Shown: positions 926-26,908 of the stretch, one piece after another
Layout of the letters: each line of letters opens with the position of its first letter
Numbering within the stretch: the first letter of the stretch is position 1
DNA from: Escherichia phage vB_EcoM_G17
DNA length: 64,000 bases
Strand: one strand, 5' to 3'
Sequence record: MK327931.1
The notes under the pieces: model-generated
Database searches by the model: none
Told to the model about the DNA's origin: nothing
The model's input: only the letters and a program-made list of their open reading frames with translations
Program-made: the position numbers and the translations under genes

Positions 926-3244
926 TTAGATTTTACAACTATCACAATCACCTTCATCCAAATCAGGAAGTGATGGTAATACAAATTGTCCAGATTCTGG
1001 TTTGGCAGCTTCTTTCAGTACTTTTTCAACGTCTACTTCATCTGAACCATCATTTGTATTATGATAATAAAGATTTTTCAAACCAACTTTATATGCATAC
1101 ATAAGTTCAGTTAGAAGAGTTGACATTGGCAACTTACCATCAGGGAAGTGTATTGGGTTATAACTAGTATTAACACTGATACTTTGGTCAATGTATTTTT
1201 GTAGAACACCACAGATTTGTAGATAACCAATGTTATCTTTCTGATCCCATAGTAAATCATATTTGTTTTTCAACTTATTGATTTCTGGAACTACTTGTTT
1301 AAGAATACCATCCTTAGATAGTTTCTTCGTTACAAGAGAACGTGGCTTTTCAATACCGTTAGTACTGTTACTGATTTGTGCACTTGTTTCTGCTGGCATT
1401 AATGCCATTGTTGTTGCGTTACGAATACCATATTCTTTGATATCGGCACGTAAGGATTCCCAATCTTGTTTTAGTTCTTTAGTTACTAATTCATCAATGT
1501 CCGATTTATAAGTATCGATTGGAAGGATACCTTTGGCATATTTTAGATTATCAAATCCTTCACACTTACCTTTCTCTTTAGCAAGCTGTACAGAAGATTT
1601 AATTAGATAGTAAGACCATGCCTCGGCCCACTCGTTAACTGTTTCTAGTGCTGCTTCATTATAACGTAAACCACGTTTAGCAAGGAAGTATGCAAAGTTA
1701 ATAATACCAACACCTAGTGGACGATACATTTTTGTAGCACGGTCAGCATGAACTACTGGGTAGTCTTGATAGTCTAATAGAGAATCAAGAGCACGAACAG
1801 AAAGATCACATGCCGTTTCCATATCTTCTGGACGGTCAAAGTTACCCCAGTTGATTGCACTCAATGTACATAAACTAATCAAACCTTCCCCAGTATTAAT
1901 GTCATCAAATGGCACAGATGGTAGTGCGATTTCTTGACACAAGTTGGATTGTTCAATAGGTGCAATAGATTCAATAAATGTTGAATGAGTGTTTGCATGG
2001 TCAATATTTTGAATATAGATACGCCCAGTTTCAGCACGCTCAGTCATTAAAGTACTGAATACTTCAACAGCAGGTACGGATTTTTTACGGATGCTTTGGT
2101 CAGCTTCGTATTTTTTATATAACTTTTCAAATTCTTTTTGATCAGAGCAGAATGCTTCATATAGCCCAGGGACTTCATTAGGACTAAAGAATGTAATATT
2201 CTTTCCATCAACCAAACGTTGATACAAAGTTTTGTTTACTTGGAAACAATAGTCCAGTTGACGCACACGGTTAAACTCAGTACCTTTGTTATTTTTAAGG
2301 ACTACCAAGTTATCAAATTCCAAATGCCACAATGGGAAGTGAACAGTTGCTGCACCACCACGAACACCACCTTGTGAACAGCTTTTAACAGTCTTAGCAG
2401 TAGCTGCAATGAACGGAATCAGCCCAGTGTGTACTGCATCACCTGAACGAATCTCGGAGTCCAGAGCACGAATGCGGCCCATATTAATACCAAGACCAGC
2501 TTTACGTGAAATATAACGTAGAATAGCGTGGTTAGAGGAACCAATACTATCCAAGCTGTCACCAACGTTTAGTACTACACAAGAGCTAAACTGACGTGTA
2601 TTTGTACGTAGACCAGCCATAATAGGCGTAGGAAGACTAATGTCAAAGTTACTTACTGCATCATAAAACTTTTTAACATATGACATACGAACAGAACGAT
2701 CATACTCCATAAAGATGATTGCTGCAATAGTCATATATGCCATTTGTGGAGTTTCATAAATTTTCTTAGTAACGCGATTTTTGTAAAGGTATTTTCCTTC
2801 CCATTGACGCATTGCAACATAAGTAAATTTATCGTCACGTTTATGTTTGATATAACGTCCAAGCTCTTCTATTTCTTGAAGAGTATATTTCTCAAGAATT
2901 TCAGGATCATATATTTTGGTATCAACCATTTCTTGAAGATGAGCAGTATATTTAATTGGGTCATACTGCCCATATACTTGCTTACGAATACTATAGTTTA
3001 ATAGTCTTCCAGCAACATATTGGTAATTAGGTGTATCTTCTGAAATAAGTTCTGCTGCTGCTTTAATAAGAATATCATGAATAGTACTAGTTTCAATACC
3101 TTCATAAAACTGAAGCTGTGCTCGGATTTCAATTTCAGAAACTGAAATACCACTTAAACCTTCAGCAGCGAAAAATAAAATTTGATGGATCTTATCCAAT
3201 GATAACGGCTCTTTCATTCCATTACGCTTGGTTACGTTAATCAT
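926..3244 (-). CDS. nrdA: Ribonucleotide reductase class Ia alpha subunit (NrdA)
   Basis: 772-aa ORF, ATG confirmed at 3244. N-terminal ATP-cone-like region and overall NrdA-like sequence; followed by nrdB. Confidence 0.92.
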   Translation of the reverse strand: MINVTKRNGMKEPLSLDKIHQILFFAAEGLSGISVSEIEIRAQLQFYEGIETSTIHDILIKAAAELISEDTPNYQYVAGRLLNYSIRKQVYGQYDPIKYTAHLQEMVDTKIYDPEILEKYTLQEIEELGRYIKHKRDDKFTYVAMRQWEGKYLYKNRVTKKIYETPQMAYMTIAAIIFMEYDRSVRMSYVKKFYDAVSNFDISLPTPIMAGLRTNTRQFSSCVVLNVGDSLDSIGSSNHAILRYISRKAGLGINMGRIRALDSEIRSGDAVHTGLIPFIAATAKTVKSCSQGGVRGGAATVHFPLWHLEFDNLVVLKNNKGTEFNRVRQLDYCFQVNKTLYQRLVDGKNITFFSPNEVPGLYEAFCSDQKEFEKLYKKYEADQSIRKKSVPAVEVFSTLMTERAETGRIYIQNIDHANTHSTFIESIAPIEQSNLCQEIALPSVPFDDINTGEGLISLCTLSAINWGNFDRPEDMETACDLSVRALDSLLDYQDYPVVHADRATKMYRPLGVGIINFAYFLAKRGLRYNEAALETVNEWAEAWSYYLIKSSVQLAKEKGKCEGFDNLKYAKGILPIDTYKSDIDELVTKELKQDWESLRADIKEYGIRNATTMALMPAETSAQISNSTNGIEKPRSLVTKKLSKDGILKQVVPEINKLKNKYDLLWDQKDNIGYLQICGVLQKYIDQSISVNTSYNPIHFPDGKLPMSTLLTELMYAYKVGLKNLYYHNTNDGSDEVDVEKVLKEAAKPESGQFVLPSLPDLDEGDCDSCKI

Positions 3245-3288
3245 GTGTCATCCTTGTTTTTTGATGTAAATTTCTTTTTTTAGTGGAA

Positions 3289-3310
3289 GAAAAAGGCGGG
3301 ACGCCTTTTA
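3289..3310. terminator. Bidirectional rho-independent terminator-like hairpin
   Basis: aaaggcg-gga-cgccttt stem-loop flanked by an A-run and a T-run, between the 193-aa gene and nrdA. Confidence 0.5.
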
Positions 3311-3889
3311 AGGTTTGTCCCACCCACGATATACAAATTCTATATGATATCCTGAATTTAAATAATCCGAGTTAACTATGTTAAATTGCATATTTCCAGT
3401 TGTAGAATCATATGCAGGATCTTCAAATGAGATAGAAATAATTGCGTCAGTTCTATTTGTATTATTTGACTGTGCAATCATCGTGTTTGTACCAGCAGCT
3501 ACAATTTGAATAGTTCCTGATTCCAAAACCGTTTCGGTATCATCATATGCAATATAATCGATGAATACTCTACTTTCACTTTCAAGAATAACTTCTATAC
3601 TTTCTTGATTTTGTGGAAGATCAACTTTAAACGGTCTGTTAATTATTTTTGATACCGTTCTCCACGGTGAAAATTCTGTAATTATTTCTACGTTTTCTTT
3701 ACCTGAATTTGGATCAGTAGTCCAAGTTCTACCTGCAACTAAGCTGGCGGGGTCAGATGATGATGGAAGGCCAATAAAAACACGACCCACATCAGTACTG
3801 AATCCTATCTGACCTTTTTCTAATGCATCAGGTAAGTCTCTCTGTTTACCAGTTCTTACTTGTTGTAAAGCAATTTGTTGTTGTGCCAT
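3308..3889 (-). CDS. Hypothetical protein (193 aa)
   Basis: ORF with ATG at 3889 and SD AGGAGA upstream. No recognisable motifs. Confidence 0.6.
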   Translation of the reverse strand: MAQQQIALQQVRTGKQRDLPDALEKGQIGFSTDVGRVFIGLPSSSDPASLVAGRTWTTDPNSGKENVEIITEFSPWRTVSKIINRPFKVDLPQNQESIEVILESESRVFIDYIAYDDTETVLESGTIQIVAAGTNTMIAQSNNTNRTDAIISISFEDPAYDSTTGNMQFNIVNSDYLNSGYHIEFVYRGWDKP

Positions 3890-3917
3890 AAAAACTATCT
3901 CCTATAGTATTATAGGA

Positions 3918-4472
3918 TTATTTAGCTTTTTCTTTAACTTCCGCAATACGCTCATTAATTAGTTGAGATACAACTGAGCTATCTACAGAAGATAAAATTT
4001 GTTCTGGTACTAAAGATTTTAAATGTTTAACATAGTTGGAAACACTTTTAAATTCTTTAGTCTGTAATGCTTCTTTGATAATGTCCAAATCTTCTTTAGA
4101 TGAAACAACACGCTCAATAACGACTTCATCTTCTTCCAATTCAGGAGCAAGTTCTTCTGCAATAATTTCAACTTCTTCAGAAACTTTAACTTGTTCTTCA
4201 CTATCAACAACATACTCTTGGATAACTTCTGGTGGTACATTGCGTGATACTTCATCAACACTAATATCTTGTGCAATTTGTTCTTTAATTTCTTCAACAG
4301 GTTTAGCACCACGTTGTTTATAATCTTTGATATTTAGAATTAGCTTATTTGATAAATCAAGTTTATCAATCTCTTCTTCACTAAGTTTAATTACTTCTTC
4401 TAAATCATAACCTTTACTTACTAGTGCACGAATTGTATATAGATCTTGTTTCATTTTTTTATGCTGCTCCAT
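3918..4472 (-). CDS. Hypothetical acidic helical protein
   Basis: ORF-track start at 4490 is GTG; first ATG at 4472 has a GGAGA SD. E/K-rich sequence. Confidence 0.5.
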   Translation of the reverse strand: MEQHKKMKQDLYTIRALVSKGYDLEEVIKLSEEEIDKLDLSNKLILNIKDYKQRGAKPVEEIKEQIAQDISVDEVSRNVPPEVIQEYVVDSEEQVKVSEEVEIIAEELAPELEEDEVVIERVVSSKEDLDIIKEALQTKEFKSVSNYVKHLKSLVPEQILSSVDSSVVSQLINERIAEVKEKAK

Positions 4473-5178
4473 TTGATTCAATTTCTCCACGTAAAATATA
4501 GTATTGTTCTACACGTTCAATCCACATATTGACTGCATCTTTGAAGTCTTGACCTTCTATGACAAACTCTTGATATTGTAGATTGTTAGGATCTTTTCTT
4601 ACACAGATGAAAATCACACCACGTTCTATATTAGTACCAAACATTTGATTATGGGCTAATGCATATGCTGCAATTTGCATACGATAATTTTCGATTTGTC
4701 CCCACTTCTTAACTTTACGGGAATTTTTATAATCCATAATGGTTGGGATTCCATCATGAACACCTACTAAATCAGTTGTTCCGGCCCATAAACCTTCATA
4801 GTACAATGGGACTTCCTGTCCCCATACTTCATTAATTCTAGGCCATGCTTCTTGCTGAATTTTGTCAGCCATTCTACGTGCAAGAACTCGAATTGGCATA
4901 CCGCCTTCATGGTCTGGCTTTCCTTCCAATCTAAATTCCAAGTTCTCATGCATAAAAGTACCAACTGTACATGCTTCTAATGTAATCTCATTAGCCTTTT
5001 CTTCACCAACAAATTCTCTCCATTTCTTTAAACCTTCGTCATTCGAGGTCGCACTTAGAATTGTTGTTACTGACGGCAGATTACCTGTTGGAGTTGAATA
5101 AAGGCGACCTTCTGGGCCGCCTTCAATTCTATTGTAACCAACATATGTATATCTGCTAACAATTGGTGGTGTGTACAT
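4459..5178 (-). CDS. PD-(D/E)XK (RecB/Cas4-like) family nuclease
   Basis: 239 aa with AGGAGT SD. Motifs in order: ...GTFMHE..., ...TTDLVGVHDG..., ...MDYKNS... (D-x-K), ...QIAAYAL... (Q-h-x-x-Y), typical of RecB-family nucleases. Confidence 0.55.
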   Translation of the reverse strand: MYTPPIVSRYTYVGYNRIEGGPEGRLYSTPTGNLPSVTTILSATSNDEGLKKWREFVGEEKANEITLEACTVGTFMHENLEFRLEGKPDHEGGMPIRVLARRMADKIQQEAWPRINEVWGQEVPLYYEGLWAGTTDLVGVHDGIPTIMDYKNSRKVKKWGQIENYRMQIAAYALAHNQMFGTNIERGVIFICVRKDPNNLQYQEFVIEGQDFKDAVNMWIERVEQYYILRGEIESNGAA

Positions 5179-5217
5179 CCGTGTACTCCTAATTATAGCA
5201 TTATATTTTAATTTGTC

Positions 5218-5553
5218 TCAGTTTTTTTGTTTATTTGCTGTCACAGCAGCTTTTGTGGCCCAATCTTCAACTTGCTCTTCAGAATCTTGCTCGACTTCTT
5301 CTGAACCTTCTGCTGAATTTCCTGCAAAAGTTACAACATCAGAATTAGCATCCTGTACAAAAGGAAGGGAATTCAAAATGTCCATCATTACATTGTATGG
5401 AACATCGATGTTGGTTCTCTTTTTAATTTCAGAAATCAAAGATTGAACATTTACTTCTTCTCGACCCGTGGACACTAAAGACAACGCAATAGTAGTAATC
5501 ATATTGCGTATATCTTTACCAGGAGCCTCTTCAGTAAGATCACGAAATCTCAT
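5218..5553 (-). CDS. Hypothetical protein (111 aa)
   Basis: ORF with ATG and AAGGA SD; acidic C-terminal tail. Confidence 0.55.
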   Translation of the reverse strand: MRFRDLTEEAPGKDIRNMITTIALSLVSTGREEVNVQSLISEIKKRTNIDVPYNVMMDILNSLPFVQDANSDVVTFAGNSAEGSEEVEQDSEEQVEDWATKAAVTANKQKN

Positions 5554-5569
5554 GTAGAATTGTCCTTAA

Positions 5570-6202
5570 TTATTTTTTAACGTATCCTAGAACACGTTTA
5601 ACTTTCTTTTCATTCTCAGAAAGCCATGTTTTCATTTCTTCTTTTGAACTAAAGTATTTAGTACCCACAGTTCCGCGAATACTTTCCATTTTTACACCAA
5701 CTTTACTTGGTTTAACAGATTCTTTCATTTCACGTTCAGTTGGTACTGGCTCAGAGATAATGTCTTCTTCAAAGTCTGCGTCTGCATCCATATCAAAAGT
5801 TGGGGTATCTGCTGCAATATCAATATCAACATCTTCACTTCCAATATCAGAAACATCTGGACCGTCAGTGATATCACCAGTTAGTTTAAGTGTTTCAGTA
5901 CTGATTTTGTCTTTTACATCCATTAAGGTAGTAACTGCATGTTGTAGTAGATGGCGAACATTATCACTAAAATTTTGTGCAGCATCTAGACCTTGCTCGG
6001 CTTTAATACGGTCAAGTAATGGGCCTAGTACGTCAACACCCATGTTGTTAATAACCTCAGATTGACGTTGGAGTTTATCCACAATCTCACCTTTTACTGA
6101 AAGAACAATTTCTGCTTTTTCAATATTAGATTCATTTAGTTGAATAAACTTCATAGCTTCTGCACGAGAAGCTGCTTCCATTAGTTTTTTATATTTTGAC
6201 AT
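5570..6202 (-). CDS. Hypothetical acidic protein
   Basis: ORF-track start is GTG; ATG at 6202 (MSKYKK...) has an AAGGAAA SD. Contains a D/E-rich segment. Confidence 0.5.
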   Translation of the reverse strand: MSKYKKLMEAASRAEAMKFIQLNESNIEKAEIVLSVKGEIVDKLQRQSEVINNMGVDVLGPLLDRIKAEQGLDAAQNFSDNVRHLLQHAVTTLMDVKDKISTETLKLTGDITDGPDVSDIGSEDVDIDIAADTPTFDMDADADFEEDIISEPVPTEREMKESVKPSKVGVKMESIRGTVGTKYFSSKEEMKTWLSENEKKVKRVLGYVKK

Positions 6203-6234
6203 TTGTATTTCCTTATAAAATATCACTCATTTAT

Positions 6235-6906
6235 TTACTTTATATAACCTTCGCCTTTTAGAAAGTTTAATACACGCTCTTTTAATTTATACGCTTCAGC
6301 TTTCTTTTCTGCAATAATTATATCTAAATCTTTTGCTTCATCATACTTCGATTCATTAAGTACGCGTTGACGTTTCTGGGCTGCTTTCAATGCTTCACTA
6401 ATCACATTCGTGTATTGAAGACCCGAACTGATTATACCAAGTACTTTTGCATCTGTCAACATTCTTCCTTCATTAAGAAGATTAACTAATGTAAGTGCTG
6501 CTTCATACATCATAATATTATTCATGATAATTTGTGAACTATGATTACACTTAATGCTATAAACTTTAGTAGATTTAGTACCTTGTACTTTTTCTTCCAC
6601 TAAACTCCAATTAGTTTTTGGTTTAAGAGGTGCTTGTGATGGTCGTGGCGAAGGTACTGGTGAATTCCCTGATAAATGTTCATTATACGGAGAATTGTAT
6701 TGAACCATATGTGGATGTTGTGGTTCACCATAATCCATACCTGCTTCATTTAATGAAGTTAAAATAGAAGCCATAGCACCGATATCACCACCAGTTTTAT
6801 ATGGAACCCCCGATGCGTTATGTGTTTCACCAGCTTCAATGTCATTCAATCCACTTAACAAATCAGCCATCTGATTAACTGATTGTTGATCATATTCGTA
6901 ATTCAT
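6235..6906 (-). CDS. Hypothetical protein (223 aa)
   Basis: ORF with ATG start; start overlaps the stop of the upstream gene. Confidence 0.55.
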   Translation of the reverse strand: MNYEYDQQSVNQMADLLSGLNDIEAGETHNASGVPYKTGGDIGAMASILTSLNEAGMDYGEPQHPHMVQYNSPYNEHLSGNSPVPSPRPSQAPLKPKTNWSLVEEKVQGTKSTKVYSIKCNHSSQIIMNNIMMYEAALTLVNLLNEGRMLTDAKVLGIISSGLQYTNVISEALKAAQKRQRVLNESKYDEAKDLDIIIAEKKAEAYKLKERVLNFLKGEGYIK

Positions 6907-7121
6907 TTACTACTCCTAACTGTTTGGTAAGATTCAGTACCGTCATCATTTTCTATTTTATTTAGAACACCACGTGATACCATCTTATCAGCTAATTCCT
7001 GATAATATTCATTTACCTTTTCAACTGGAACAGTACCGCGTGCTTTTATCTTTTGTAATAGTTTATATTCTTCATTAGAAACCATTGTATTGTGACCATG
7101 CACATTTAGTACTGTTCTCAT
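6903..7121 (-). CDS. Hypothetical small protein (72 aa)
   Basis: ATG at 7121 shares one nucleotide with the upstream stop (TAATG); GAGGT SD. Confidence 0.5.
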   Translation of the reverse strand: MRTVLNVHGHNTMVSNEEYKLLQKIKARGTVPVEKVNEYYQELADKMVSRGVLNKIENDDGTESYQTVRSSK

Positions 7122-8065
7122 TAACGACCTCGCATACGATGACAGAAATCGATAATTTGGTCTACCATGTCATCATTATCAGATTGTGATGTGTTTGCCA
7201 TAACACTTTCATCACCATAGATATCATCTTCTTTTTCAATATCAGAAATTGCATGTATCATTTCGCCCATACCAGGTGCGTGATGTGACAATGGTGATGG
7301 TGTATCAGGATTACTATCAGGCTCTAAACTGGAATTAGCCATAAGTTCACTGTTAATTTCTTGTGGAGATTTTTCTTCACGAATTGGATTATTTTGATTA
7401 TCAATAGGATTAACATCACTCAAAGGAAAAACGTTCAACTCATTTGGCTTAGTCCCACTTTTAGTAATAACTAATGATTGCTCCGGTGTTTGTCCTGGGT
7501 CAACACCAACTACAGGTTCAACCGAATCTGTCCCGCTTTGTGTACCAGGAACACTAACTTTCATATTATTAGCATTTCTTTGCAACTCAGCTTGTTTCAT
7601 TTTAGCTTGAGTTTGTGGATTGACTTGTTGTTGACCCTGAGAAACATTCATTTTAGCAATTTGTTTTGCTTGCATTTGTGTGGCTTGATTTTGTAAATCT
7701 TCAAATACAATTGCTTTTAATTCTTGTGTGGTTAGTTTTGTTATATCTGAATATGTATAATTTTTATGATACTCTTCTGCTAATTGCTTTAGTGACATTG
7801 AATCAACAATACTATGAAGTTCAGTGCTTTCATTAATATGTTTGTTAACATTTTTAGTACTAAAATAATTATAACATTCACTCATCTGTGCTTTGTATTT
7901 TTGTAAAATTTGGAATATTTCACGATTGTCAGAATTATCAATCGCAGAATTTAAAGTGATAAAATCACCTGCATCCATATTATCAAGAATAACAGAAACA
8001 TCAACATTCAAATTATGTGCATCTGCGAACTTTTGAAGTTCAGTTGCTGTTTGGTTTATATCCAT
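7121..8065 (-). CDS. Hypothetical Q/N-rich protein
   Basis: ORF-track start at 8119 is GTG; ATG at 8065 (MDINQTATELQKF...) has a GGAGAAA SD 5 nt upstream. Confidence 0.5.
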   Translation of the reverse strand: MDINQTATELQKFADAHNLNVDVSVILDNMDAGDFITLNSAIDNSDNREIFQILQKYKAQMSECYNYFSTKNVNKHINESTELHSIVDSMSLKQLAEEYHKNYTYSDITKLTTQELKAIVFEDLQNQATQMQAKQIAKMNVSQGQQQVNPQTQAKMKQAELQRNANNMKVSVPGTQSGTDSVEPVVGVDPGQTPEQSLVITKSGTKPNELNVFPLSDVNPIDNQNNPIREEKSPQEINSELMANSSLEPDSNPDTPSPLSHHAPGMGEMIHAISDIEKEDDIYGDESVMANTSQSDNDDMVDQIIDFCHRMRGR

Positions 8066-8121: not shown

Positions 8122-8514
8122 TTAAGAAAAGGTCTGTTTGCTGATGCTAATGTTAATATCATCACCAGATGTGATAAATTTTGTTATTCGTTTTCCATTT
8201 AATTCGGTTGGTAGAACCAATGGTATACCATTCAAACGAAGTTCGACATCCATTGGTAATGCGAATTTGAATGTGCTTATGGTACATTTTCCCCAAGAAA
8301 TTGGCATGTTATAAAAAGATGAATTATTATCTTTATATAAATCGACTTCATTTTTAACAACGCTTACCATCATTGGATAGTCATATACCATAATAGCTTC
8401 CAACAACCTAGACAAGTTCATAGCACCAGTGAACTTAGAATCTATGATTGTTGGGGTTTTACCATCACCAATATCTACTACAGTGTGAATTGTGTAGAAT
8501 GTATATGGTTTCAT
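8122..8514 (-). CDS. Hypothetical protein (130 aa)
   Basis: ORF in the same-strand gene array; start not verified. Confidence 0.45.
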   Translation of the reverse strand: MKPYTFYTIHTVVDIGDGKTPTIIDSKFTGAMNLSRLLEAIMVYDYPMMVSVVKNEVDLYKDNNSSFYNMPISWGKCTISTFKFALPMDVELRLNGIPLVLPTELNGKRITKFITSGDDINISISKQTFS

Positions 8515-8676: not shown

Positions 8677-8949
8677 TTAATTTCCTTTATTACGTTTTTC
8701 ATCAAGTGCTATATTCTCTAACCCTTTTTGAAACTTTTTATAATCTCGGTTTTTTATACTTAGAAATAAGCGTTTTTTTAAATCTTCAGCATCAGTTTGG
8801 TTAAACTCATCTTCAATGCTCTCCAATAAATGAATCACAGAGTTTATTGCGTGGTCGGCACGATTACTAAAACTCTGTAATGTATCTTTCTCTGGCGTAT
8901 AGTCAACTATACTATCAAGTAGATTCTTTTTATTGGATTTACTAGACAT
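8677..8949 (-). CDS. Hypothetical protein (90 aa)
   Basis: ORF in a tightly packed same-strand array. Confidence 0.45.
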   Translation of the reverse strand: MSSKSNKKNLLDSIVDYTPEKDTLQSFSNRADHAINSVIHLLESIEDEFNQTDAEDLKKRLFLSIKNRDYKKFQKGLENIALDEKRNKGN

Positions 8950-8952
8950 TTA

Positions 8953-10473
8953 TCATTTCCTTTGATTTAACCATTGCTTCATTGCATGAACACGATCAGT
9001 ACCAGCATGTGTCTGTGGATTCTGTATTTCGTTTTGTGTCGTAGAGTTAGGAGCACTATCAGTATTTAGTGTTACTGTATTGTCAGGTTGCACAGATGGT
9101 GATTTAGCTGCACCAGAAAGCGAATGACGTAATGTTTGCATAGTGCTGGGTGGTAACGCCATGTTCCCTCCACCAATCTTAGAAACACCGCTGTGACGGA
9201 ATCCATTACCTTCGGTTTCCATTTGTTGTACTGTAGTTGCGTGGTCAAGAACTCTCAATGAATCAATATCATATGACATACGCAAACGGGAACCTACTGC
9301 ACTACTGTTACGTGTTTTTTGGAAATCAAACCATAGTTCGCCAGTTTCTTTTTTTGCTTCAATATAAATTACGTTATCAGCAGTATAAATTTTTGAAATA
9401 CCACCAGCAATCTGACTTTGACTTTTCTTATCTTCGTCCATACCACTACGGTTAAACTGAGATGCAGTGAAAACAGTCAAATCCATTTTGGATGCAAGAG
9501 CACGTAATTCTTCTGATACAAATTTATCTTTAGTAAATGTATTGGATTTATCATTTGGTCCAAGACGATTAGAAGTTAATAGATCCAAATAGTCCACGCA
9601 TACATAATCAAGTTTGATTTCCATCTTAATTTGTAATTCACGTAGATAACTTTCAATATCGTCTGTGGTTGTTACAGATTCAGGTAAGCGTTTAATACGC
9701 AACATACCACTGTTTTTACCTTCAACTTTAACAGCAAATCCAATCTTTTCAGCTTCATTTTTTACGTTACTGAGTTTTGATTCAGTCATCATACCATAGA
9801 TACGAACAGCAACCAACTCTTCAGCTAGTTCAAGTGAAATGTATGCACCATTCATTCCAGCTTTCGCAAAGTTAACTGCTAAATTTTGCAGTACTACTGA
9901 TTTACCACCACCTGATGCAGCAGCAAAGATCTCTAACTCTCTACGCCCAAATCCACCGAAAAGTTTGTAATCAAGAGTTTCCCAACCACTCTTAAATGAT
10001 CCTTGCATTGTACTGAGTGAGCGGATTGTATCTTCAGGGTTTTCAAAAATATCCAAACCTAACTCATTCTGTACCGTTACCAACATTGCTTCTCGGATTA
10101 GTTCTTCGATTCCACCATATTTTTTCTGATGGACAAGTTCCATTCCTTTTTCAACGGCTAAAGCTAATGCTTTATGGCGACAAAATTCACCACAGGTATC
10201 AAGTACTGATTGTTTATGTAATTCTTGAACTTCATATTGATCGTATTGATAACCACCTTTAACTTCAATATCTTTCAAAGTAGGTGATGAACTATATTTT
10301 GCAGCATAATCATGCACGTATTGAATACTTTCATGAAATGTTTTATCAAAATATTCTGGTTTAAGGATATTTTTACAACGTACATATAAATCAGGATTAC
10401 TGAAAATCTGAGATAATAAGTATTGTTGTGCATTAATCCCATATTGTTTCACATCCACTGTGCTTTGAATCAT
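8953..10473 (-). CDS. gp41: DnaB-family replicative DNA helicase (T4 gp41-like)
   Basis: 506 aa with Walker A AASGGGKS and RecA-like helicase core; ATG confirmed with GAGGGAA SD. Immediately downstream of the primase gene, as 61 then 41 in T4. Confidence 0.85.
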   Translation of the reverse strand: MIQSTVDVKQYGINAQQYLLSQIFSNPDLYVRCKNILKPEYFDKTFHESIQYVHDYAAKYSSSPTLKDIEVKGGYQYDQYEVQELHKQSVLDTCGEFCRHKALALAVEKGMELVHQKKYGGIEELIREAMLVTVQNELGLDIFENPEDTIRSLSTMQGSFKSGWETLDYKLFGGFGRRELEIFAAASGGGKSVVLQNLAVNFAKAGMNGAYISLELAEELVAVRIYGMMTESKLSNVKNEAEKIGFAVKVEGKNSGMLRIKRLPESVTTTDDIESYLRELQIKMEIKLDYVCVDYLDLLTSNRLGPNDKSNTFTKDKFVSEELRALASKMDLTVFTASQFNRSGMDEDKKSQSQIAGGISKIYTADNVIYIEAKKETGELWFDFQKTRNSSAVGSRLRMSYDIDSLRVLDHATTVQQMETEGNGFRHSGVSKIGGGNMALPPSTMQTLRHSLSGAAKSPSVQPDNTVTLNTDSAPNSTTQNEIQNPQTHAGTDRVHAMKQWLNQRK

Positions 10474-10495: not shown

Positions 10496-11551
10496 TTACA
10501 TCCATTTATCCGTTTGAGCTTTAATATAAAATGGCTCATCTACTATACTATCATGTATTAATTGTAAACAAAATAACCTACCAAATCGTGCACAAGCTTC
10601 TTCAAAGTCTTTGATATGACGTATTGTACTACCTTCTCTTACAGCACCAAAGTCTGGGAAGGAAACACTGAATCCATTTTCAAGTGCTTGGTCTATAGTT
10701 ATTAATCCATCTTTATCTCTATCTGGAACAATAACTATTTTTTTACCTTTTTGCTGTGCATCTTTTAATACATCAATCTGTACGTTTGATAATTTAAAGT
10801 TATTAGCAGATACACCACCCATTAATGCTGCGTCTAACGGACCCTCACATACTAAAATTGTTTTTATTCGTTCATCTTTTAATAAATCATAGTTATATAG
10901 TATATTAGTACTTACTTGATTTATGAACCTGTATGTACTTCCAGGATCTTTTAATTTATGTCGTGCAGTATAACCAATAATTTTACCATTCATGAAATAT
11001 GGAATAATAAATCTGTCATACATTTTATGTTCTTTATTAGGTGACCAATATAATTCTAAGTCTAACAGATATGGGTTTCTTTCATTGACATTATGCAAAA
11101 CACTTATAAATTCTTGTGGAATTTTATCTTCAGGTAAAGAAGCCCATTCCCAAAATGTTTTTGCATTTGATGGCAAATCACGTACTGTTACTCGGTCATA
11201 CAATTTTGATGCAACAGTTTCTTGTGCAGCAAAATCACCGCTGTCAACCATTTCTTTAATATAAAACTTAACTAATTCTATTTCTTTATCTTGTGCACCA
11301 AAAGAAATGAGCAAAGACTCCATATCTTTGCTCATATATTTTCCTGGTTGCCAACCAGTTTTTAAACTACAGTTAAAGCAGTTATATGAAACGGAACCAT
11401 CTGCATTGAACATATGATTACCACGGTGCTTTGTATCCGGCCTTGAATGTCCTCTGAACACACAAGCTGGACAGTTGTGTTGTGACCATGTACCAATCGC
11501 AGGTACTGGATCATTCATAATTTGTGCCATTATGTTTTGTACAGCGTTCAT
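10496..11551 (-). CDS. gp61: DNA primase (T4 gp61-like; zinc-binding plus TOPRIM)
   Basis: 351 aa. N-terminal Cys cluster (HNCPAC...YNCFNC) and TOPRIM-like VCEGPLDA; ATG with AAGGA SD. Confidence 0.8.
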   Translation of the reverse strand: MNAVQNIMAQIMNDPVPAIGTWSQHNCPACVFRGHSRPDTKHRGNHMFNADGSVSYNCFNCSLKTGWQPGKYMSKDMESLLISFGAQDKEIELVKFYIKEMVDSGDFAAQETVASKLYDRVTVRDLPSNAKTFWEWASLPEDKIPQEFISVLHNVNERNPYLLDLELYWSPNKEHKMYDRFIIPYFMNGKIIGYTARHKLKDPGSTYRFINQVSTNILYNYDLLKDERIKTILVCEGPLDAALMGGVSANNFKLSNVQIDVLKDAQQKGKKIVIVPDRDKDGLITIDQALENGFSVSFPDFGAVREGSTIRHIKDFEEACARFGRLFCLQLIHDSIVDEPFYIKAQTDKWM

Positions 11552-12641: not shown

Positions 12642-12995
12642 ATGAATCAATATAACACTATTCCACCATTCATTACTGTAATCCAGTATGATGGTAAAAC
12701 GTTTGTTGGTATCATCAAAATCAAAAGCAAACAGTATACAACTCTTTACTGTTTCGATGATATGGATGATTCAATGCAAGACGAATTGTTAGGTATAGCA
12801 CACGATTGGTGGTGGCAAAGTAATAGAACCATTCCAGTTTGTCTATTCTTTCAAGAAGAGATGGAGAAATTTGAACCGTACACACAGAGATTCGATACAC
12901 CGTCGGTGAATTTCGTATGTGGTCCAGTAGTTTCTTTAAGCAATTTGCCACAGAAACGCATCAAGCGTCGTAATGTGGCTCTTAAGAAGAAGTAA
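12642..12995 (+). CDS. Hypothetical protein (117 aa), plus-strand gene inside the minus-strand block
   Basis: ORF exactly fills the 330-bp gap between two minus-strand genes; Trp-rich (HDWWWQ); basic C-terminus. Confidence 0.4.
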   Translation: MNQYNTIPPFITVIQYDGKTFVGIIKIKSKQYTTLYCFDDMDDSMQDELLGIAHDWWWQSNRTIPVCLFFQEEMEKFEPYTQRFDTPSVNFVCGPVVSLSNLPQKRIKRRNVALKKK

Positions 12996-13620
12996 GATGT
13001 TCAACTAAAGCATTTAGTTGTACAACAATCATTAAGCTATATGCGTAAGCATGTGGCTTTTTGAAATATCGTAATTTATTTCCTGCTTGGTCAGTGCCTA
13101 TAGTACTATAATCCCATATGGTAGCTTTAACTTCGTCCCATGTGTTCATACTTTGGCACTGCCTTTTTCCTGGGCGAATCATTGCAATAAACATTGCTAG
13201 TTCGTCTATAGATTTAGGCTTCCATACATTTAATAAAGTTACATGTTTTTTAATTTGCGATAGATGTTCTACAATTTCGGGTTCTAACAATAGATCCCAA
13301 TTTGGTTCCTGATTCATTAGTTCTTTTAAATGCTCTCTATCACGAACATACATGTAAGCTGACTGTGAAAGAATATCAACTTTTTGATACCCTAACCTTT
13401 CAGCTTCTTTATATTGTATACTTGCCAATCCAGTGATTGGATCAATAGGTATATTATCAAAATGAACACCACTATTATGGGGGATTAAACCATCCTCCGT
13501 AATTTTTTCAGTACTTCGCACACATGGAAGTTTAGCGATTACGCTTTTACTATCCTTGAAGTCAATGTCAATATCAGTTCGGGCTTTTCTATAATGTTTA
13601 GAATCGGTCGAATCCTGCAT
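12982..13620 (-). CDS. Hypothetical protein (212 aa) with local DnaE-like motifs
   Basis: Contains ...VDILSQSAYM..., ...AMFIAMIRPGKR..., ...FKKPHAYAYSLMIV... in the order of fingers-region motifs of bacterial Pol III alpha as recalled; by-eye only. Confidence 0.5.
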   Translation of the reverse strand: MQDSTDSKHYRKARTDIDIDFKDSKSVIAKLPCVRSTEKITEDGLIPHNSGVHFDNIPIDPITGLASIQYKEAERLGYQKVDILSQSAYMYVRDREHLKELMNQEPNWDLLLEPEIVEHLSQIKKHVTLLNVWKPKSIDELAMFIAMIRPGKRQCQSMNTWDEVKATIWDYSTIGTDQAGNKLRYFKKPHAYAYSLMIVVQLNALVEHLTSS

Positions 13621-16447: not shown

Positions 16448-16466
16448 CAGCGGGTTTATCCCGCTG
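16448..16466 (-). terminator. Stem-loop at the 3' end of uvsW (terminator or attenuator)
   Basis: cagcggg-tttat-cccgctg, 7-bp stem, followed on the minus strand by UUUGUG. Confidence 0.4.
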
Positions 16467-17940
16467 TGTTTTCCCAATCTTTAACATCTATTATACTATG
16501 AGGATATTGTGCTTCCTTATAGTAAGCTAAACGTTCTCGTAAATGCTTAGCACTATACTTATTAGAACCACTAATATCATATATTTCTACGTGGTCTTTA
16601 TCTTCTGCTCGGCGTAATCCACGTCCAATTGACTGTATAGTTCTTACAAAACTTTTTCCTGGCTCAATCAATACTACATTATATAACCTTGAAATACTAA
16701 TACCAGTACTGGCAACGCCGTATGTCGCAATAAGTATTTTATTATCAGCCCAACGAATTTCACCATAAGATGATTCTCGATCTTTCTTTTTAGTTTCTCC
16801 ACGAACGAATTCTGATTTGGGAATGCCTAAAAATTCACATAGCAACTCACCTGCTTCAAGTCTATCTACTAAAACTAAAGTGTTTCCTGATTCAGATAAC
16901 GCAGATATCAATGACGCTACATATGCCATCCTATCTCTGTCAGTTACTAAGTATTTCAACTCTTCAGCATATGATGCAAACTTCATACTACTTTTTAGTT
17001 TGATGCAATTCACATTACATGTACTTAGTATTTGTTTATCTTGTAATTCCTTTGCAGTTATTTTAAATATAACATCACCAACATTACATTTGATTTTCGC
17101 GGCAACTACCGGATCTTTAGGAATTGTTCCAGTAAGACCCCAACGTAATGGTACGTTATTCATAACTTTAGAAAGTACTTGAACTAATGCGTCACCGCCT
17201 GCACCTTGACACTCATCAACGATAACACAAACTACTCCATCGATAAAATCATTCACGTCTTGTTCAGTTAATTCAATTTCACCTTTCTTGGTTTTCTTCC
17301 ATAGAGAGTTAAATGATTGCCAAGTCGTAATAGTATGTTGGTGACCAAAATCTTTTTGTGAACCATAGAACATGCCAGTATCCAACCCACACATAATGTA
17401 GTCATCATATGTTTGTTGTACTAAGTCAGTACTTGGTACTATTATAACAGAACGTCCATACTCTTGCACTTTCTTTGACAATGCAGCAGTAATGAGAGTT
17501 TTACCTGCACCAGTAGCTGCCAATAGCAGTCCGTGTGGATTAGCCAAACATGCATTAACCGCATTAACTTGATGTTCACGTAGTTTTATGGATTTACCTT
17601 CCATGTGGTGTCCTGCACCGAATACAACATCACTAAAAATATCTTCATCAATGGGGTCAAATTTAAATCCATAATCTACCCTATGATCTACTAATTCAAT
17701 GTCAATCTTAGCTTCATCAAGAATAGGCAATAACTTATCTAACATATGATAATAAGTTGTTCCGCCTAAATTCATAAACTGAACTTTACCATCCCAACGT
17801 CCAATACGTCCTGCTGGTGTGAACTTTGCATATGGTAACACATATTCAGTTGCACGAATCATCTTTTGTCTAATTGAGGGATCAAGTCCCTCAAATTTAC
17901 AATTCACCTCATCCAATAAGGTTAACTTACAAGTTTTCAT
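16456..17940 (-). CDS. uvsW: SF2 DExH-box helicase, UvsW-like
   Basis: 494 aa. Walker A LLAATGAGKT, motif II VIVDECQ, motif VI-like QSIGRGLRR; ATG confirmed. Confidence 0.7.
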   Translation of the reverse strand: MKTCKLTLLDEVNCKFEGLDPSIRQKMIRATEYVLPYAKFTPAGRIGRWDGKVQFMNLGGTTYYHMLDKLLPILDEAKIDIELVDHRVDYGFKFDPIDEDIFSDVVFGAGHHMEGKSIKLREHQVNAVNACLANPHGLLLAATGAGKTLITAALSKKVQEYGRSVIIVPSTDLVQQTYDDYIMCGLDTGMFYGSQKDFGHQHTITTWQSFNSLWKKTKKGEIELTEQDVNDFIDGVVCVIVDECQGAGGDALVQVLSKVMNNVPLRWGLTGTIPKDPVVAAKIKCNVGDVIFKITAKELQDKQILSTCNVNCIKLKSSMKFASYAEELKYLVTDRDRMAYVASLISALSESGNTLVLVDRLEAGELLCEFLGIPKSEFVRGETKKKDRESSYGEIRWADNKILIATYGVASTGISISRLYNVVLIEPGKSFVRTIQSIGRGLRRAEDKDHVEIYDISGSNKYSAKHLRERLAYYKEAQYPHSIIDVKDWENTAG

Positions 17941-17955
17941 CCATGATTACCTTTA

Positions 17956-18774
17956 TTAATTAGTTCGAGTATTATATTCGTACTCAAATGTATATACTAA
18001 ATCTTTATCACAGTTAGGGTTACTTGCATCTAAAATGTCACTATTAGTAATCATCCATTCAATGTAATTCAATGGAACTGTACTCATTGGCTCACCTTTG
18101 TGTTTACCAAATGGCATGAATTGATAACGCATTGGTGTGTTGCAGAAAGTTACAATTTGCTCACCAATATCACCATTAGGTTCGATATGTCCACGTTCGA
18201 TTGCAATTTCAACTAATTTGATTAGAACCTGATAACACATAAACACATCGTCTTTTGCTGCGTGTGCATTAACAGGTCGATGAACATCACGATAACATCC
18301 AAACTTATACCACAAATAACTTAGAGTTAAGTTTTTAAATTCAATATCTTCTGCGAACATTTTCTTAGCAAGACGAAGGGTACAAATCCATTTATTTTCA
18401 TCAAGTAAGTACTGTGAAATTGAGTTACGATATTTATATTCGTTATCTACCATCATTCTACGGTCAAATTGTACATTATGACCAACAAAATACTTACGGC
18501 ATCCCATAAGTGCATCAATGTTATCTAAATCATCTTTATACCCAACACAATTAGCTACATCCTCAGTACTGATAAAGTGCACAGCAGATGCCTCTGGTGG
18601 AATATCTTTCAAGGGTTTGTATCTCAATGTATAGTTATCAATAGTATCAATGTTTTCATGTGAAGTATGTGGATACGAGATACTAAATTCAATAATATCA
18701 TCTTCACTCTCAACCCCAGTAGTTTCAGTATCTAGAACTGCTACATTTGATAAAAACTCATTTAATTTTGTCAT
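17956..18774 (-). CDS. DnaQ-like 3'-5' exonuclease (DEDDh) with C-terminal DUF3820-like extension
   Basis: Exo I VLDTETTG, Exo II FVGHNVQFD, Exo III HAAKDD; C-terminal ...MPFGKHKGEPMSTVPLNYIEWM... resembles the DUF3820 motif. Functional analogue of T4 DexA. Confidence 0.7.
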   Translation of the reverse strand: MTKLNEFLSNVAVLDTETTGVESEDDIIEFSISYPHTSHENIDTIDNYTLRYKPLKDIPPEASAVHFISTEDVANCVGYKDDLDNIDALMGCRKYFVGHNVQFDRRMMVDNEYKYRNSISQYLLDENKWICTLRLAKKMFAEDIEFKNLTLSYLWYKFGCYRDVHRPVNAHAAKDDVFMCYQVLIKLVEIAIERGHIEPNGDIGEQIVTFCNTPMRYQFMPFGKHKGEPMSTVPLNYIEWMITNSDILDASNPNCDKDLVYTFEYEYNTRTN

Positions 18775-18821: not shown

Positions 18822-19283
18822 TTATTCTAAACGTGCATCCTCAATACCAGCGGCACGTAGTCTCACAATATTGTTTAACTGAAAAGCTTTCATCTCTAAG
18901 GATTTAACAATACTTGAATATGTATTTCTTATATAAGATACCTCGTTTATAAGTTCTGCTAACTCACAAACATCTTTATCACCTTCAACATACTTTTTAC
19001 AGTCAGATGAAGATAGTGCACGGCGGTATCCTTCGAGAAAGTATTTGAACTTCTCGGCTTGTACCTGACGCATTTCAATTTCTAACATTTCCAATACTGC
19101 TTCAAGTTCTTGAAGCTGGCTTAGACGCGTCTCATGCCAGCCAGGAATCTCTTGAGCAATTTTTTCAATGATGCCAATCTTCTTTACTTCACGACGAGCT
19201 TCTTCAACTTCGTTGTTAAAGAACTCAATCATTTCAATAATTTTAGATTTATCATCTTTGATAATCCAATGCCAAGGTTTCAT
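18822..19283 (-). CDS. Hypothetical helical protein, possible UvsY-like recombination mediator
   Basis: 153 aa, immediately downstream of uvsX; helical, contains DKDV; size similar to T4 UvsY (137 aa). Assignment is context plus weak resemblance. Confidence 0.3.
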   Translation of the reverse strand: MKPWHWIIKDDKSKIIEMIEFFNNEVEEARREVKKIGIIEKIAQEIPGWHETRLSQLQELEAVLEMLEIEMRQVQAEKFKYFLEGYRRALSSSDCKKYVEGDKDVCELAELINEVSYIRNTYSSIVKSLEMKAFQLNNIVRLRAAGIEDARLE

Positions 19284-20401
19284 TATTCCTCACTAATATC
19301 CACATCAGTACCAAAAGTTTCATCACCTTTTTCTTCTTCTTTAACTTCTTCAATCAAAGGATGATTTTTAAATTGATGCATTACCAAATCAAGACATGAA
19401 TCTTCATTACGCATCCACTCTTTGCGATATTTTAGAATCTGTTCGCCAGTTACAATATCAACATACAATAGACGGTTACCTGATTTAGTGATTAGACCGT
19501 ATTTTTCAAACATATCTAGTAGACCACTACGTGGGTCCATACCTTTATCCCAAGGAATTTTAATTTCTACATCTTCGAACGGCTTGTTGTAACGAGTCTT
19601 CATGACTTTACATTTAGCACGAATACCATTTACTTCGGAAGTTTTATTTCCGTCTTCATCTTCTTTAAGTTTTAATTTACCCATTGCGATAACCATAGAT
19701 GAAGCATAAATCAAGCCACTACCACCTGAAACTTTAGGATCTGGGTTAAACATGTCCTGAGATTCATAACTGTGGTTAACGCAAACCATACCAATGTTCA
19801 ATGAACCAATAGAGTTTACACAGTTTGTGATATATGCTTTAAGCTGTTTGGGTTTATGACCCATGTCACCTTTAAGGTTACCCGCTTTCATTTGATCATT
19901 GGCTACTTCAGTGTTTAGCATACCAATTGAATCAATAATAAACAATACTTTTTGACGTTCATCTTTAGGTGTATTTTCGTATTCTTTACGATATCCTTCA
20001 ATGAACTCATAGGTGAATTTTGCAACGTCACCAATCATACCCATATTGACTTTCAAAAGTTTTTCTTCAGAAGTGTCAACACCAAGTGCTTGAAGCCAAT
20101 CTGAATCCAATGCGTTCTCTGAGTCAATCATAACAACAAAGATGCCTTGTTTTTGAGCTTCACGTGCAATATTACCAGATACGATAAAAGATTTACCACT
20201 ACCTGATTCACCAGCAAACATCGTTACTTTGCCTAGTGGGATACCACGGTCAAAATAGCCACTGATGCGATAATTTAGTGCATAGTTACCAGTACTAACC
20301 CATGTATCTGGATCATGAAAACCAACACTAACACCAGTATTCTTTTTAACACTACCAGTACTGTTTTTAAGAATGTTCGCAAAACCACTTGTCATTTTCA
20401 T
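19283..20401 (-). CDS. uvsX: RecA-like recombinase UvsX
   Basis: 372 aa. Walker A FAGESGSGKS and RecA-core layout; ATG with AAGGAG SD; acidic C-terminus. Confidence 0.85.
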   Translation of the reverse strand: MKMTSGFANILKNSTGSVKKNTGVSVGFHDPDTWVSTGNYALNYRISGYFDRGIPLGKVTMFAGESGSGKSFIVSGNIAREAQKQGIFVVMIDSENALDSDWLQALGVDTSEEKLLKVNMGMIGDVAKFTYEFIEGYRKEYENTPKDERQKVLFIIDSIGMLNTEVANDQMKAGNLKGDMGHKPKQLKAYITNCVNSIGSLNIGMVCVNHSYESQDMFNPDPKVSGGSGLIYASSMVIAMGKLKLKEDEDGNKTSEVNGIRAKCKVMKTRYNKPFEDVEIKIPWDKGMDPRSGLLDMFEKYGLITKSGNRLLYVDIVTGEQILKYRKEWMRNEDSCLDLVMHQFKNHPLIEEVKEEEKGDETFGTDVDISEE

Positions 20402-20470: not shown

Positions 20471-21523
20471 TTACTTACCTTGTTGTTTCAAACGAGCAAC
20501 TAGTGCAGATGCAGATAGTTGTTCTTTTGGTGCTTCAGGAGTGGTTGCTGCTGGGGTAGCGACTGGAGTTACTGGAGCAGCTTGTGGGGCTGGTGTAACT
20601 GGAGCAGTAGGTGCTACTGGTGCAGGTGCTGACTCTTGTTGTACTGGAGCAGGAGTTGGTTTTGATTCAGTAACAGTTCCAGAGTTAGGTTTTGGTACAC
20701 CTGCTGGACGATATGCAAATGCCCAACGTGCTGGATCATATGCTTCACCATTTACTGATGCTTCGAACATTTCTTCAATTGCTTTCAACTCTTCTGGAGT
20801 TGGTTGTTTTGGCATAAAATCATTTAGATTGTATAGGCCATATTTTTCAATTGCTGCTAGTTCTTCTTCGTTTAGTGGACGCTCAGACATGGAGAATTGA
20901 GACATGTCGTAGCTATTATAACCACCACCATTCTTAGTTTTAACAATACCAAAATCACGACCTTGAACGTAGTGAGTTGGAGACTCTTTGATGCCTGGGT
21001 TTAGCAGGATGGATTTAACTTTATCAAAGATATCTTTGTTAGCCAGAATACGACGAATTGGATTTTCTGGTGCAATGTCGTCTTTTACTGCAACGCTATC
21101 AGGAGCAATAAAACATTGCATTAGATAGGTTTTCTTCTTCCAGTAACGACCAGCCATTGCTTTTAGTTCTTCGTTCCCTGTTTCATTCGCACTTTGGAAC
21201 CATTGACGTACTTCTTTCAGAACCGGACAGGATTTAGGAACCCACATTTCGTTACAAGGTACTTGAACGGTAACTTTATCAGTGTGCATACCGACTACAC
21301 CATTGAAAGTTAGGTTAATCATGTCACGTTCACGCCAGAAGAATGGGTTAGACTCATCTGCATCTGGTAGAAAACGTAGGTTTAGTGGTTCGTTATAAGG
21401 TACGTTCCAGAAAGCTAAGAACGAATCAGCTTTACGCTCGCCAGTAAATGTACCATTCTTTTGAGCTTCTGCTTTTTCTTGTTCTGCTTTTAGGTGTGCA
21501 CGAATTTCAGCTAGAGATTTCAT
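20471..21523 (-). CDS. gp32: Single-stranded DNA-binding protein (T4 gp32-like) with Pro/Ala-rich C-terminal tail
   Basis: 350 aa. ...LNLRFLPDADESNPFFW..., ...YLMQCFIAPDSVAVKDDIAPENPIRRIL... parallel gp32 core motifs as recalled; ATG with AAGGAAG SD. Confidence 0.7.
   Translation of the reverse strand: MKSLAEIRAHLKAEQEKAEAQKNGTFTGERKADSFLAFWNVPYNEPLNLRFLPDADESNPFFWRERDMINLTFNGVVGMHTDKVTVQVPCNEMWVPKSCPVLKEVRQWFQSANETGNEELKAMAGRYWKKKTYLMQCFIAPDSVAVKDDIAPENPIRRILANKDIFDKVKSILLNPGIKESPTHYVQGRDFGIVKTKNGGGYNSYDMSQFSMSERPLNEEELAAIEKYGLYNLNDFMPKQPTPEELKAIEEMFEASVNGEAYDPARWAFAYRPAGVPKPNSGTVTESKPTPAPVQQESAPAPVAPTAPVTPAPQAAPVTPVATPAATTPEAPKEQLSASALVARLKQQGK

Positions 21524-21650: not shown

Positions 21651-26908
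<5,258 letters not shown>

Follow-up and report, generated by a model that had tools for sequence, protein, structure and literature searches.

A candidate MGME1-type single-strand exonuclease in the replication and nucleotide-metabolism module of Escherichia phage vB_EcoM_G17

What is a small, stand-alone nuclease doing among the genes of a jumbo phage, and which of the many nucleases built on the same fold does it most resemble? The gene that raises this question lies at positions 4459-5178, on the minus strand, of a 64,000-nucleotide stretch of Escherichia phage vB_EcoM_G17 (sequence record MK327931.1; hereafter the window, whose coordinates are used throughout), where an open reading frame (ORF) with an ATG start encodes 239 amino acids and a stop codon. 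The original prediction took the product for a RecB/Cas4-type exonuclease embedded in an accessory region rather than in the recombination cluster. Our analysis points instead to an MGME1-type exonuclease acting on single-stranded DNA (ssDNA) that would trim replication and recombination intermediates, an overall explanation to which we assign a probability of roughly 0.55, and it places the gene within a replication and nucleotide-metabolism module.

The reading frame and the full PD-(D/E)XK set described in the original prediction are both confirmed, and the matches to the family given below go well past anything that chance would produce. In an alignment of 40 homologues (44-85% identity), the source of the conservation counts given below unless another sample is named, the catalytic residues are invariant: H77 and E81 in the string H77-E-N-L-E81; E122 of motif I (4813..4815, on the minus strand like all motif positions that follow); D136 of motif II, the predicted metal ligand that closes the string G-T-T-D136 (4771..4773); D149 and K151 of the motif III (D/E)XK element D149-Y150-K151 (4726..4734); and Q168 and Y172 of the motif IV QxxxY element Q168-I-A-A-Y172 (4663..4677), which is followed by an invariant H176. 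W53 and L50 are likewise invariant, as is the segment S36-L41 of the family signature P35-S-V-T-T-I-L41 (5056..5076), and the family-specific N-terminal beta segment (residues 1-34) contributes invariant Y12, R25 and Y27. The pattern extends to 80 environmental viral loci from IMG/VR with homologues at 43-81% identity (64 clusters at 90% and 23 at 70%), among which 74 match motifs II and III under a strict regular expression for D...(D/E)-x-K and 79 carry QxxxY. On these sequence features the protein is a PD-(D/E)XK nuclease of the RecB-like (PDDEXK_1) clade; the Pfam model of that name (PF12705) gives a marginal match over residues 99-201 only (24.2 bits against a cutoff of 22, E 3.7e-5). The protein holds only two cysteines, C70 (Cys in 7/40 homologues) and C192 (Cys in 31/40), and three of the 40 homologues have none at all. 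With so few cysteines, C70 being variable, an Fe-S module can be set aside, which bears out the earlier remark that no cluster motif was seen.

Within the RecB-like clade, sequence profiles and the predicted structure indicate that the closest characterised relative is human MGME1, and not RecB or Cas4 proper. The original prediction therefore stands as to clade and QxxxY motif and gives way as to the specific relative. A single-sequence search of the Protein Data Bank (PDB) matched MGME1 across its whole nuclease domain (E 0.0045), and a 40-sequence profile run against PDB sequences retrieved MGME1 as the sole nuclease (E 2.7e-16, 62.8 bits), with a polysaccharide lyase (E 0.007) as the one further match at E <= 1. 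In the reciprocal direction the MGME1 nuclease domain finds phrog_298 as its best PHROG (E 2.3e-23; next family 1.9e-4), and PHROG 298, labelled 'exonuclease', is the family in which the phage protein is itself a full-length member (E 2.2e-64, residues 2-232). The AlphaFold2 model has a mean predicted local distance difference test score (pLDDT) of 94.5 and a predicted template modelling score (pTM) of 0.89. When it was compared with the PDB by Foldseek, the nine top matches were all MGME1 chains (E 5e-11 to 2e-9, template modelling (TM) scores 0.64-0.81), followed by 3l0a (1e-5), RecE (7e-5), Cas4 SSO0001 (3e-4) and AddA (5e-3). The structural neighbours published for MGME1 itself largely overlap this list (PMC6237815). 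The nuclease domains of RecB, AddA and AdnA, and Dna2, are fused to SF1 helicases or work in multi-subunit machines, whereas the phage protein stands alone at 239 residues. We are accordingly confident, though not certain, that the molecular identity is that of an MGME1-type nuclease.

This relationship can be followed residue by residue. A single-sequence alignment, with MGME1 numbering anchored on His180, Trp152 and Phe173 of PMC6237815, pairs H77 with H180, E122 with E223, D136 with D238, D149-Y150-K151 with D251-W252-K253, Q168 with Q271 and Y172 with Y275, and in the arch it pairs W53 with W152 and L50 with L149. Common to the phage protein and MGME1 (Ddk1/C20orf72; PDB 5zyu, 5zyt, 5zyv, 5zyw and 8xa9) are the H, E, D, DxK and QxxxY set, the PSVTxxL motif (IPSVTRVL in the human protein), a predicted pair of helices at the arch position with the Trp and Leu that line the channel in MGME1, and a single-domain build free of an Fe-S cluster. 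In the model, helices 48-57 and 59-84, assigned with DSSP (residues 48-84; 4927..5037), occupy the position of the MGME1 helical arch alpha2/alpha3 with high confidence. Unlike MGME1, the phage protein has no mitochondrial presequence and starts directly at the family N-terminal beta segment, for which MGME1 offers no match. At 22% identity the two are homologues and not orthologues, and since the gene is phage-encoded and Ddk1-like orthologues are restricted to Opisthokonta (PMC3597694), we regard the product as a phage homologue and not as MGME1 itself.

Neither the gene nor its link to MGME1 is new. Over its first 12 kb the window matches Escherichia phages vB_Eco_slurp01 and Sharanji at 100% identity and PBECO4, SHEFM2K, JP4 and other phages at 98.5-99.9%; these jumbo myoviruses of ~350 kb (121Q/PBECO4/Sharanji type), with which the phage of the window belongs, are placed in the genus Asteriusvirus by the Sharanji record. 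The 239-residue protein is 100% identical in 21 records, including Sharanji WNN14593.1 and the 121Q/PBECO4 'exonuclease', under the labels "exonuclease", "putative exonuclease", "PD-(D/E)XK nuclease superfamily protein" and "hypothetical protein", so the gene was already known and annotated. A word-indexed search gave 2590 homologues at E <= 1e-3, and an exhaustive search gave 8549 cluster representatives (50% identity) at the same threshold and 3597 at E <= 1e-10. With few exceptions these are single-domain proteins, 210-250 residues long and matched as one stretch; homologues are present in 981 phage records, BFVD returns many confident viral structure matches, and many homologues bear the JGI name 'genome maintenance exonuclease 1'. 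PHROG 298 spans Rak2/PA5oct-like jumbo phages, Ackermannviridae, T4-like cyanophages (T4-GC 325), PhiW-14, Cr30 and others, and against this background the protein itself is not distinct, only the gene neighbourhood varying by lineage. Phage exonucleases, mostly from Caudovirales of cyanobacteria and proteobacteria, were grouped with Ddk1/MGME1 by Szczesny et al. in 2013 (PMC3597694), for which reason the relationship cannot be claimed as new. The gene is thus an ordinary member of a known phage family whose link to MGME1 is already published. The papers on phAPEC6 and PA5oct contain nothing specific about it.

If the protein is of known type, its surroundings become the main guide to its role, and here the description of an accessory region, apart from the recombination genes, could not be upheld. 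In the annotation of the window, which we took from the SHEFM2K record, the exonuclease gene lies inside one long run of minus-strand genes. Just before window position 1 this run carries genes for a Dda-like helicase, RNase HI, DHFR and a nucleoside triphosphate (NTP) pyrophosphohydrolase, the RNase HI being of the E. coli type (PF00075, E 1.2e-36; L001 1270-1698, ~4.3 kb before window position 1). The end of nrdB reaches into the window at its start and is followed by nrdA (926..3244), which is annotated as the large subunit of class Ia ribonucleotide reductase and forms the downstream same-strand neighbour of the exonuclease gene, from which it is separated by two small ORFs. On the other side, beyond eight small ORFs of which many are labelled "virion structural protein", come the DnaB-type helicase (8953-10473), primase (10496-11551), UvsW-like SF2 helicase (16456-17940), DnaQ-like exonuclease (17956-18774), UvsX (19283-20401) and SSB (20471-21523), all in the same direction. 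Further along the minus strand are the terminase and then a FEN-type RNase H (T4-rnh/FEN 5'-3' exonuclease; 25865-26902; PF02739, E 2.8e-16), and the family-B DNA polymerase, a complete 1001-residue ORF (30993-33998). Endonuclease VII and a gp46/47-like SbcCD are encoded at 48.7-52.5 kb. Viewed as a whole, the phage has an unusually full set of enzymes acting on DNA ends, comprising RNase HI, FEN, the MGME1-like protein, the DnaQ-like exonuclease, endonuclease VII and gp46/47.

The association with ribonucleotide reductase recurs well outside this phage. The 80 environmental loci were searched with a panel of 26 families of replication, recombination and nucleotide-metabolism proteins, and 54 of them (50 of the 65 having at least 3.5 kb of downstream sequence) had nrdA on the same strand and downstream, at a median distance of 2.1 kb (range 0.5-4.6 kb), with nrdB following in 35 loci. 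The linkage is seen in 18 of the 23 clusters at 70% identity. With a protein that is 43% identical, the Pseudomonas jumbo phage Deifobo also keeps the order exonuclease, nrdA, nrdB; the two ORFs that intervene between exonuclease and nrdA were considered as conserved partners and dismissed, being unrelated in this phage and in Deifobo. In more distant lineages the neighbours change. In the Agtrevirus SKML-39 (Ackermannviridae) uvsY directly abuts the exonuclease gene and a DNA helicase follows, and in Delftia phage PhiW-14 uvsY again abuts the gene, and the opposite strand carries a UvsW helicase gene immediately upstream of uvsY. The order is td, phoH, exonuclease, gp33 in cyanophage Syn19; exonuclease, phoH, ligase in Caulobacter phage Cr30; and primase, RNase H, exonuclease, SSB in Xanthomonas phage X1. 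These neighbours differ yet always belong to DNA metabolism, and we therefore regard the gene as a conserved component of T4-type DNA-metabolism modules.

The biochemistry of MGME1 offers a template for how such an enzyme may work. MGME1 is a monomeric, end-dependent, ssDNA-preferring, bidirectional and metal-dependent DNase (PMC3597694, PMC6237815, bioRxiv 10.1101/2024.01.15.575787), in which the metal is held by a His, two Asp and a backbone carbonyl and a Lys orients the nucleophilic water (same three sources). Single-stranded DNA threads under a rigid helical arch where W152 contacts the DNA sugar (PMC6237815, bioRxiv 10.1101/2024.01.15.575787), and the narrowest part of the cavity, lined by W152, Q145, L148, L149 and F266, admits single strands only (bioRxiv 10.1101/2024.01.15.575787). 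Threading of this kind accounts for the need for a free end, the degradation of ssDNA from either end, the stalling at junctions of single and double strands and the release of short oligonucleotides. By homology, the phage protein would be a small single-domain Mg2+/Mn2+-dependent DNA exonuclease of the same type. It would hold one metal at a site formed by H77, D136, D149 and the backbone carbonyl of Y150, with K151 positioning the attacking water and E122, Q168 and Y172 buttressing the active site. The two-helix arch, with W53 and L50, would span this site such that only a free ssDNA end could be threaded. Gating by the arch would in turn make the enzyme dependent on DNA ends, give it a preference for ssDNA and flaps, cause it to stall at ss/duplex junctions and lead it to release short oligonucleotides. 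The analysis shows the gene, its motifs, fold, family and setting, and it is by this analogy that we go on to infer a metal-dependent and end-dependent ssDNA exonuclease activity. The gene would be expressed together with the replication and nucleotide-metabolism genes, and its product most likely trims the ssDNA flaps and tails that arise from replication and from UvsX-dependent recombination-primed replication, as an ancillary nuclease alongside the phage RNase HI, the FEN-type RNase H and the gp46/47-like nuclease.

Flap and tail trimming as the physiological role is the more tentative part of this explanation, and taken separately we would place it a little below even odds. The adjacency of uvsY in two unrelated lineages, together with the primase, RNase H and SSB neighbourhood in phage X1, suggests it, and so, by analogy, does the position of MGME1 itself, which may be described as an ancillary 5' nuclease of a phage-like replisome. 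The distribution of the family among phages is compatible with flap processing. The search for MGME1-like homologues returned 369 records named for Synechococcus, 61 for Cyanophage and 22 for Prochlorococcus (452 in all), whereas the search for T4-type rnh returned only 41 Synechococcus-phage records (E <= 1e-3), and the ten organism names most often returned with the FEN homologue of this phage included no cyanophage group; conversely, Escherichia-named records numbered 62 in the MGME1-like search and 636 in the rnh search. The two distributions are in this sense partly complementary, as raw counts that carry no correction for phylogeny or search sensitivity.

Several observations weigh against this explanation. 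RNase HI, FEN-type RNase H and gp46/47 homologues are already present in this phage, so that flap removal and end resection have candidate enzymes without the MGME1-like protein. The most conserved neighbour in the clade is ribonucleotide reductase and not a recombination gene, which fits a role in DNA recycling at least as well. The likeness to MGME1 is also incomplete where DNA is bound: compared with MGME1 the first arch helix is shorter by ~7 residues, and no conserved counterpart exists for the DNA-stacking residues F147, F173 and F266, F173 aligning with the variable C70 and F147 and F266 falling in gaps, so the substrate length, polarity and product size may differ from those of MGME1. 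Lastly, the literature we searched yielded no experimental study of any phage member of the family.

The alternative that survives best keeps the enzyme and changes its task, and it is only as a rival of this kind that the degradation of host or competitor DNA named in the original prediction lives on. In it, endonucleases and helicases first open host DNA, or other DNA that is linear or has been displaced; breaking this down is then the main work of the MGME1-type ssDNA exonuclease, and the products feed the nucleotide pool for the synthesis of a very large phage DNA, much as T4 DexA might, or as POLG, Twinkle and MGME1 degrade linear mitochondrial DNA. The same-strand order of exonuclease, nrdA and nrdB across the environmental loci and clusters enumerated above speaks for it, as does Deifobo, which retains the order despite unrelated intervening genes. 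In cyanophages and in Cr30 the gene adjoins td and/or phoH. MGME1 is among the enzymes that break down linear mitochondrial DNA (PMC5928156), and the Sharanji authors have speculated that host DNA is recycled. An arch-gated ssDNA exonuclease, however, could not attack duplex host DNA alone, and the products of MGME1 are oligonucleotides and not mononucleotides (bioRxiv 10.1101/2024.01.15.575787). The linkage to ribonucleotide reductase may reflect shared expression timing or inherited synteny and not a common pathway, and indeed could amount to shared timing only, while the neighbours in Ackermannviridae and PhiW-14 are recombination genes. We consider recycling unlikely as the principal function, though it deserves to be taken seriously, and we rank trimming slightly above it.

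A more ambitious version of the trimming role borrows its outline from mitochondria. Here RNase HI would remove the primer on the lagging strand, the polymerase would displace a flap and the exonuclease would trim it, and the phage family would additionally be the source of MGME1. A phage origin has been proposed for Ddk1/MGME1, as for POLRMT, POLG and Twinkle (PMC3597694). If this combined proposal were true, the exonuclease would be the main nuclease for flap and 5'-end maturation in the numerous T4-like cyanophages in which no T4-type RNase H (FEN) is detectable, and opisthokont MGME1 would have been recruited from the phage family, as were POLRMT, POLG and Twinkle. We regard it as improbable in this full form.

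The remaining alternatives would change the enzyme itself, and all fare far worse than an MGME1-type ssDNA exonuclease. A processive exonuclease of the lambda-Exo/RecE type, resecting duplex ends as the nuclease half of a two-component recombinase, would be expected to have a partner; RecE itself works on duplex ends as an oligomer, in company with RecT. No Red-beta-, RecT- or Erf-type annealase is annotated or detected beside the gene, where the flanking ORFs have no Pfam match and fall into PHROGs that are 'virion structural' or without assigned function, and the recombination genes of this phage are of the UvsX, SSB and gp46/47 types. Sequence profiles select MGME1 and not RecE or lambda Exo, with no significant profile match to the E. 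coli RecE nuclease domain (3h4r) or the Eubacterium rectale putative exonuclease (3l0a), and in the model the putative closed arch with W53 would favour threading of ssDNA over a duplex-binding toroid. Such an enzyme is very improbable here.

Marginally less credible still is the label that has reached print. A 2025 paper on Sharanji names WNN14593.1 "a solo Cas4 (vCas4)" and suggests that it might trigger CRISPR autoimmunity (PMC11895373), and this protein is the product of exactly the gene studied here (4459-5178). The idea is that a solo viral Cas4 interferes with host CRISPR adaptation and provokes self-targeting, and it has a precedent in a PDDEXK_1 Cas4-like protein of a Campylobacter phage that affects spacer uptake (PMC5704561). 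There is also a weak similarity to Cas4 models (TIGR00372 27.1 bits; PADLOC Cas4 models E 8e-7 to 1e-2). However, the TIGR00372 score lies far below the curated cutoff of 65, the Pfam Cas4 family is absent among matches at E <= 1, and MGME1 is a far better match by both sequence and structure. A four-Cys Fe-S module is found in every Cas4 family member (PMC5704561), SSO0001, Pcal_0546 and type I-C Cas4 among them; the phage protein, with its two cysteines and its cysteine-free homologues, does not have it. The setting is one of replication and nucleotide metabolism and not of CRISPR, and neither the SHEFM2K nor the Sharanji record has an annotated cas gene anywhere in the window, where no dedicated scan for CRISPR repeats was run. 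The type I-E system of E. coli is not known to include a Cas4, which counts further against interference of this kind. With the four-Cys module lacking and model scores below threshold (COG1468/PF01930/TIGR00372), we reject the Cas4 or solo Cas4 label.

Least probable of all is a sequence-specific type II restriction-like endonuclease directed against host or competitor DNA, for although several records name homologues 'restriction endonuclease type II-like' or 'endonuclease' and the PD-(D/E)XK core is common to restriction enzymes, that label is a generic superfamily name, the QxxxY motif and the predicted arch are typical of RecB/RecE/MGME1 exonucleases, and no methyltransferase is annotated within ~10 kb of the gene.

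At the level of expression, a Shine-Dalgarno ribosome-binding site, AGGAG, can be read directly at 5186..5190 on the minus strand, 7 nt upstream of the exonuclease ATG. Downstream, an acidic ORF of 184 amino acids (3918..4472, minus strand; PHROG 15452, no Pfam match), noted for context only, has its ATG inside the last 14 nt of the exonuclease gene. The overlap (4459-4472) makes translational coupling between the exonuclease and the PHROG 15452 protein possible, as judged from the sequence. A TATAAT at 5192-5197 was rejected as the exonuclease promoter, being badly placed and directly abutting the ribosome-binding site, and within 3000-7200 promoter-like and terminator-like sites are no more frequent than expected by chance. 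The sole perfect sigma-70 consensus of the 64-kb window (6431-6459, minus strand; TTGACA-17 nt-TATAAT with a TG extension) lies inside the ORF at 6235-6906, ~1.25 kb upstream of the exonuclease gene. Of 100 shuffles, 16 contain one or more perfect matches of this kind, so that this one is not significant alone. No Rfam families or tRNAs were found in the window, and the plus-strand ORFs within the exonuclease gene (42 and 79 amino acids) gained no support.

The small genes around the exonuclease invite some comment in their own right. Seven minus-strand ORFs (3308-3889, 5218-5553, 5570-6202, 6903-7121, 7121-8065, 8122-8514 and 8677-8949), which alternate with nrdA, the exonuclease gene and the helicase gene, carry the name 'virion structural protein' in SHEFM2K through PHROG transfer. 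Three of them were searched and had no Pfam match, several are very acidic, and structural proteins scattered within a replication module would be odd. One of the seven, the ORF at 5218-5553, was considered as a diverged UvsY on account of the adjacency of uvsY elsewhere and of its N-terminus, MRFRDLTEE, which resembles that of T4 UvsY. We rejected it: BLASTP gave no alignment with the UvsY-like protein of SKML-39, and the one PHROG into which the ORF falls is 15050, 'virion structural protein', while proteins that are truly UvsY-like belong to phrog_231. Elsewhere in the window, an ORF of 212 amino acids at 12982-13620 (minus strand) is annotated as 'DNA polymerase' (PHROG 11778) in SHEFM2K and has no Pfam match. 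An ORF of 307 amino acids at 37370-38293 (minus strand), annotated 'endonuclease', adjoins the major head protein gene (38427-39602); it scores 24.7 bits for the DUF4379 treble-clef zinc finger against a cutoff of 24.5 and 16.9 for T5orf172, below the cutoff of 20, and has the look of an insertion of the homing-endonuclease type next to the capsid gene.

Our findings correct and sharpen an existing annotation. What they add is the confirmation of the MGME1 relationship at the level of residues and structure, the rejection of the published "solo Cas4" label, which we find unsupported, and a quantified synteny with ribonucleotide reductase. The gene belongs, in a large group of big myoviruses, to the conserved core of the replication and nucleotide-metabolism module, and it is neither accessory nor defence-related. 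The family, with thousands of members, is the closest relative among prokaryotic viruses of the human disease gene MGME1. The study of a single phage member would bear on the part that an arch-gated ssDNA exonuclease plays in T4-type replication, and it would equally bear on the idea, raised in 2013 and not new here, that MGME1 may be a further part of the mitochondrial replisome derived from phages.

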